Made by a program: the position numbers and the translations under genes. Positions 12,512 through 12,531 of a stretch of DNA of 64,000 nucleotides are shown here, piece by piece. The notes under the pieces were generated by a model that worked only from the letters and a program-made list of their open reading frames with translations, searched no databases and was not told the origin of the DNA. The stretch comes from Escherichia coli 042 (GTDB lineage: Bacteria; Pseudomonadota; Gammaproteobacteria; Enterobacterales; Enterobacteriaceae), in the NCBI RefSeq assembly GCF_000027125.1, contig NC_017626.1, one strand, 5' to 3'. How positions within the stretch are numbered: the stretch's first letter is position 1; each line of letters opens with the position of its first letter.

Positions 12512-12531
12512 TACTGTTTTTATATACAGTA
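12512..12531. promoter_or_regulatory. LexA (SOS) box upstream of sbmC
   Basis: TACTGTTTTTATATACAGTA, i.e. CTGT-N8-ACAG with TA flanks, 17 bp upstream of the sbmC start codon. Confidence 0.7.

Follow-up and report, generated by a model that had tools for sequence, protein, structure and literature searches.

A near-consensus LexA box directly upstream of sbmC, very probably the operator of the sbmC promoter

The gene sbmC (gyrI) of Escherichia coli K-12 was originally described by Baquero et al. in 1995 (as cited in PMC10886550) and appears in a list of SOS genes (PMC6590174). Its LexA motif is listed as TATACTGTATATAAAAACAGTATCA and the umuD motif is identical (PMC3009722 Table 4). The SOS induction that a preliminary description of the present DNA took as known is borne out by K-12 data, in which sbmC was induced 5.7-fold by AZT with a 9.5-fold dependence on LexA cleavage and a heterology index (HI) of 2.8 was given for its box (PMC11228462). 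The UV-induced promoter activity is biphasic, with a second, late peak (PMC5999292), and induction in the stationary phase is credited to Baquero 1995, as cited in PMC10886550 and PMC5999292. Furthermore, sbmC is regulated by CRP via a class I CRP-S-like site, and Sxy induces it 6-fold in a manner that needs CRP and cAMP (PMC1635313).

Here, we analysed a 64-kb stretch of E. coli 042 DNA (hereafter the window) around a 20-bp palindrome in front of sbmC. We identify this palindrome with high confidence as the operator through which LexA would hold RNA polymerase off the sbmC (gyrI) promoter. As such, the sbmC LexA box is already known, real but ordinary; its practical use lies in correct annotation, as sbmC of this genome should be regulated by the SOS system, by CRP/Sxy and by entry into the stationary phase as in K-12.

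The palindrome and its surroundings

The box and the genes around it are located in the window as follows.

12512 to 12531, minus strand: 20-bp palindrome read as the LexA operator (SOS box), from its matrix score, identity with K-12 and conservation among orthologues
12514 to 12529, no strand: core CTGT-N8-ACAG, the sole match in the 64-kb window
12024 to 12497, minus strand: coding region of sbmC (gyrI), 157 aa, assigned from the open reading frame, NF007451 and PDB 1JYH
12616 to 13788, minus strand: dacD, the upstream neighbour, assigned by the NCBIfam equivalog NF008489 with 848 bits

On the plus strand, positions 12512-12531 read TACTGTTTTTATATACAGTA, with CTGT at 12514-12517 and ACAG at 12526-12529, and on the minus strand, that of sbmC, the box reads TACTGTATATAAAAACAGTA. 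The preliminary description had reported a fit to the SOS box CTGT-N8-ACAG at this position; the core match is exact and the full 20-mer carries two mismatches to TACTG(TA)5CAGTA. The placement directly upstream of sbmC also holds, the gene being a minus-strand open reading frame and the box lying in its own orientation. The distance of 17 bp from the sbmC start given there is right when counted from the CTG core (12514 to 12497) and imprecise for the 20-mer, which is separated from the A of the sbmC ATG by 14 nt (12498-12511).

The identity of the gene is supported by a match of the encoded protein to the NCBIfam equivalog NF007451 ‘DNA gyrase inhibitor SbmC’ (301.6 bits, cut-off 179, residues 1-157 of 157) and to the crystallised protein PDB 1JYH (E=1.9e-106). 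sbmC and dacD, both on the minus strand, are the only sizeable open reading frames around the box. An Rfam scan of the window gave no match at the LexA box and six matches at gathering score elsewhere (16998-17072, 19812-19935, 39230-39268, 44614-44684, 49074-49123 and 63546-63584), belonging to the STnc240 sRNA, the histidine operon leader, JUMPstart (two), naRNA4 and the algC RNA. Together they correspond to the usual sbmC-his-O-antigen-colanic acid neighbourhood.

By itself, the loose core CTGT-N8-ACAG carries no significance in 64 kb, as it was found once against 0.71 expected and occurred at least once in 49 of 100 shuffled sequences. We therefore relied on the full 20-mer and on a LexA matrix. 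None of the 100 shuffles contained a site with three or fewer mismatches to the consensus. The matrix was built from 16 other K-12 boxes (PMC3009722 Table 4), with the sbmC site and the identical umuD site left out, and the boxes used for training score between 16.8 and 28.7 bits. With this leave-out matrix the box reached 28.5 bits and an HI of 0.95, a tie with the strongest known boxes and far over the next best site in the window (14.0 bits), while the best of 100 shuffles scored 23.3 bits and the mean of the shuffle maxima was 12.9 bits. The claim of a near-consensus box is upheld by this scoring. The second-ranked match, TTCTGCATAGCTATCCAGTT at 28831-28850 (14.0 bits, HI 9.3), lies at chance level; this and the other candidates in the window (37027, 9362 and 56691) were rejected, their scores being those of shuffled sequence. 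The site before sbmC combines the CTG...CAG core, a matrix score in the validated range, overlap with the putative promoter, orthology to a K-12 site with LexA-dependent regulation, and conservation.

Promoter architecture, conservation and rival explanations

The elements of the promoter region, from the sequence itself, RNA folds, the orthologue alignment and published data, are the following.

12528 to 12534, minus strand: -10 element CTATACT (hexamer TATACT at 12528-12533 plus C at -13), read from the sequence
12549 to 12554, minus strand: putative weak -35-like hexamer TTGTGG, with a 15-nt spacer to the -10 element; its TTG is nearly invariant in the alignment
12521 to 12523, minus strand: approximate, putative transcription start inside the LexA box, from tiling-array data and the position of the -10 element
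12502 to 12506, minus strand: Shine-Dalgarno sequence GGAGG, read from the sequence, with GGAG invariant in the aligned orthologues
12572 to 12587, no strand: CRP-S type site TGCGAGTCTGCTCGCA (TGCGA-N6-TCGCA), from conservation and PMC1635313
12573 to 12605, minus strand: hairpin after the dacD stop codon (GCAGCAGACTGGCAGGAGTGCGAGTCTGCTCGC), from RNA folds, with the CRP-S site as its 3' arm

The -10 element and the LexA box share four bases, at the end of the former and the start of the latter. The transcription start predicted from the -10 element is 12521, and the 5' end of the UV-induced sbmC transcript, at the resolution of a tiling array, lies about 26 nt before the ATG, at approximately 12523 in the window (PMC3009722 Table 8). 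Since the box overlaps both the -10 element and the 5' end of the transcript, LexA should block RNA polymerase. A LexA dimer bound to the 20-mer would cover the end of the -10 element and the start some 21-26 nt before the ATG, and the geometry suggests that the bound repressor would exclude the polymerase from the sbmC promoter by occlusion. As the box is among those closest to consensus in the regulon and shares its 20-mer with umuD, the repression should be tight. Following DNA damage, activation of RecA would bring about LexA self-cleavage and transcription of sbmC; binding of LexA to 12512-12531 and derepression after RecA-mediated cleavage are predictions carried over from the K-12 literature.

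A scan for consensus promoters passed over the one at the box and found only CTGGCA-18-CATAAT, farther upstream on the minus strand. The box-overlapping promoter was missed because its -35 element is weak and its spacer only 15 nt, and we therefore infer its geometry. In the alignment, the spacers between the -35 and -10 elements of sbmC measure approximately 15-18 nt across genera. At the -10 position TATACT, TACACT or TATAGT is retained in promoters of the Escherichia, Salmonella, Citrobacter, Kluyvera, Enterobacter and Lelliottia type; a few genera have variants of it, and in Klebsiella, Raoultella and Pluralibacter the arrangement is shifted. A sigma54 promoter (CTGGCA...TGC) was rejected, the GG-to-GC spacing being too short for the -24/-12 consensus. 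The C at -13 with TATACT forms what we take to be a sigmaS-type -10 element, and the use of sigmaS that this would imply fits the known stationary-phase induction. In published predictions sbmC is without sigma70 use (PMC5999292).

The block at 12572-12587 is the most conserved part of the dacD-sbmC intergenic region among 21 orthologous promoters from at least 12 genera. Counted from the putative start, the centre of the CRP-S site lies at about -58.5 in the window and at about -61 in genera with a spacer 2-3 nt longer. Klebsiella, Raoultella and Pluralibacter carry TGTGA-N6-GCACA at this position, nearer to a canonical CRP site. Positive inputs at the sbmC promoter would come from the putative class I CRP-S/Sxy site some 50 nt upstream and from the sigmaS-type -10 element. 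The preliminary description is to be amended accordingly: LexA is not the sole input, as these two elements belong to the same promoter. Leclercia has a single compensatory change in the hairpin at 12573-12605, and Salmonella, Citrobacter werkmanii and Kluyvera do not retain its left arm. As an intrinsic terminator of dacD it was rejected, no T-run following it and the left arm being lost in these three relatives.

The sbmC-dacD intergenic region was matched in 5,417 of 5,426 complete E. coli genomes; in about 290 of the 5,417, less than 80% of the 401-bp query was covered in one piece. The best identity to any of the 5,426 was 98.6% over 10 kb (9000-19000) and 99.3% over the 401 bp (12350-12750), which would place the window in an Escherichia/Shigella lineage missing from this set. 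For a wider comparison, one genome per species was scanned with the SbmC motif GYWDIEM, which gave 79 loci, and approximately 65 of these were SbmC orthologues (60-98% amino-acid identity) with sufficient sequence upstream and a site not interrupted by an intron. These represent at least 12 enterobacterial genera, including Escherichia, Salmonella, Citrobacter, Enterobacter, Kluyvera, Lelliottia, Leclercia, Silvania, Klebsiella, Raoultella and Pluralibacter. In all of the approximately 65 a LexA-type palindrome precedes the ATG by 14-24 nt, with scores of about 10-28.8 bits, while the flanks diverge. The alignment of 21 promoters contains four conserved islands: TGCGA-N6-TC(A/G)CA, the TTG of the -35 element, the -10 element with the LexA box, and the Shine-Dalgarno GGAGG, which is conserved in nearly all aligned sbmC orthologues. 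In Enterobacter, Lelliottia, Leclercia and Silvania (loci L012, L016, L059 and others) the promoter-proximal half-site is GTG, not CTG. Klebsiella and Raoultella boxes (L041, L054, L075) have an ATG half-site, lie 4-8 nt farther from the ATG codon and score 9.9-18 bits. The promoter-proximal half-site is degenerate in Enterobacter, Klebsiella and Raoultella (10-23 bits), so that LexA does not control sbmC equally strongly in all genera, and judging from these sequences its control may be weaker where the half-site is GTG or ATG.

Three other explanations of the palindrome or of sbmC expression were weighed. That the palindrome is a chance inverted repeat of an A+T-rich intergenic region, with no regulatory role, could draw on the frequency of the loose core, which about half of the shuffles contain. 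The full 20-mer outscores every shuffle, it matches the validated K-12 site base for base, and its footprint is kept across at least 12 genera despite diverging flanks, so that this reading is hardly credible. The inverted repeat might instead act mainly as a hairpin, forming either a stem-loop in the sbmC leader RNA, with effects on translation or stability, or the terminus of the dacD mRNA, and folding of the intergenic RNA does pair the half-sites in a 7-bp stem with an 8-nt loop. This stem is short, A/U-rich and without a T-run after it, and the 5' end of the induced transcript lies inside the box, so that the sbmC mRNA lacks the left arm (PMC3009722 Table 8). In addition, the changes among orthologues follow the LexA motif, with CTGT/ACAG and an A/T-rich spacer kept and no compensatory pairing; in Enterobacter, TAGTGT...ACAGTA breaks the stem while one half-site is kept. 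A role mainly as a hairpin is therefore very improbable, if slightly less so than pure chance.

Finally, sbmC could be transcribed chiefly from the upstream promoter CTGGCA-18-CATAAT (12597-12568) or by read-through from dacD, in which case bound LexA would obstruct elongation as a roadblock. The consensus scan found this promoter on the minus strand, its CATAAT lies inside the most conserved upstream block, and dacD is on the same strand with no canonical terminator after it. The conserved block is, however, explained by the published CRP-S site TGCGA-N6-TCGCA (PMC1635313), the CTGGCA of the -35 part is not conserved in Salmonella or Klebsiella, and the UV-induced 5' end lies at the box and not about 70 nt before the ATG. 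We consider the roadblock explanation improbable, and keep to a LexA operator at which the repressor would occlude the promoter.

A group II intron in LexA boxes

Of the observations reported here, those on a group II intron are the only part that may deserve follow-up. The match of the region to E. coli O68:H12 strain 97.3 ends exactly at the edge of the sbmC box. In this strain a group II intron (L002, 4164-6076) lies directly next to sbmC; the 5' exon of the intron consists of another LexA-like box, not that of sbmC, in front of a prophage S24-peptidase gene, an arrangement that suggests recombination between two intron copies. Recombination between copies of this ltrA element has been described in papers. 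The intron is 1909-1913 nt long and belongs to Rfam RF02005, and its encoded protein has by Pfam only the RT domain and no endonuclease domain.

A search of viral contigs with the first 33 nt of the intron yielded 52 loci (L083-L134), which with strain 97.3 makes 53 copies. In all 53 the 5' exon ends in a LexA box cut after position 19, the commonest target being TACTGTATATAAAAACAGT^A. Six further copies on E. coli chromosomes and plasmids (L135-L140) likewise follow position 19 of a LexA box, for a total of about 60 with a 5' flank. Among 51 distinct 5' flanks the information content rises abruptly at -19 and remains high as far as -1, which are the exact limits of the box. A candidate EBS1 of the intron (ACUGUU) pairs with AACAGU of the LexA box.

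In seven complete E. coli genomes the intron occupies the sbmC LexA box itself (...CTATACTGTATATAAAAACAGT|intron|A...GGAGG..ATG), the insertion point mapping to 12512/12513 of the window. Genomes with the intron at this box include ECONIH5 (L136), CREC7837 (L137), strain 81 (L135) and 97.3 (L002), and the four different 3'-exon variants at the sbmC box point to several independent insertions. In plasmids, pOXA-48-type among them, the intron has entered a LexA box some 20 nt before mucA/umuD-like genes (S24/LexA family) and is antisense to them (2036-2530 of L140, pOXA-48-type, and 2230-2530 of L139); the palindromic target is thus used in both orientations. At three loci (L091 and two others) the 3' exon is the start of another, variant intron copy, so that two introns stand in tandem. 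Such tandems are expected if a resident intron restores the target ...ACAGT^G with its first G. Two insertion sequences were also noted in the dacD-sbmC intergenic region: in strain 81 (L135, about 1550-1660) ISKox3 interrupts the A/T spacer of the sbmC box, and in strain 95NR1 (L003, 4288-5501) IS1203 lies between dacD and the hairpin.

It is thus conceivable, though somewhat short of an even chance in our estimate, that the 20-mer, besides serving as the sbmC operator, is a natural but still empty target of a group II intron with a specificity for LexA operators as such. Upon insertion after position 19 (ACAGT^A/G), the first G of the intron would rebuild a near-perfect LexA box, and the inserted intron would in some cases come under an SOS promoter. 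The intron may be Kl.pn.I5, for which a homing-site consensus has been inferred (PMC3522654); the term SOS is absent from that paper. We found no report linking group II introns to LexA or SOS boxes in a literature search that most subscription journals fall outside, which makes this weak evidence. If the targeting is true and previously unrecognised, LexA boxes would be landing pads for a retroelement as well as regulatory sites, and this retroelement would spread on resistance plasmids and prophages and seed homologous recombination between SOS genes. Recurrent targeting of the 20-mer on E. coli chromosomes, pOXA-48-type plasmids and prophages would tie SOS sites to the dissemination of a retroelement and to genome rearrangements mediated by the intron.

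Comparison with K-12, umuDC and Salmonella

In K-12 MG1655, sbmC (b2009) has the identical 20-mer in the same place, with the same 14-nt gap to the ATG, and the comparison with K-12 that the preliminary description had proposed supports its reading. The gene order yeeA-sbmC-dacD-sbcB is the same, as are the CRP-S block and the hairpin. Differences from K-12 are single bases in the surrounding sequence, with none inside the LexA box: GCAGC versus GCAAC before the -10 element, TTAATGG versus TCAATGG and GGCATC versus GGCGTC after the box, and TAATATT versus TAATTTT farther upstream.

The LexA box of umuDC is the same 20-mer (PMC3009722 Table 4), whereas its flanks and promoter differ. It is among the tightest operators and its gene is induced late (PMC5999292). 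Compared with umuDC, sbmC has the additional CRP-S/Sxy input, stationary-phase induction and a biphasic UV response. In Salmonella enterica, a single orthologous box stands shortly before the sbmC ATG, and DNA damage induces the gene (PMC8072944). The S. Typhimurium box is weaker (HI 6.32, 21 bp from the ATG) and differs in its spacer, and the gene is induced 3.55-fold by nalidixic acid (PMC8072944), while the S. arizonae and S. diarizonae boxes score 23-25 bits and lie 16 nt before the ATG.
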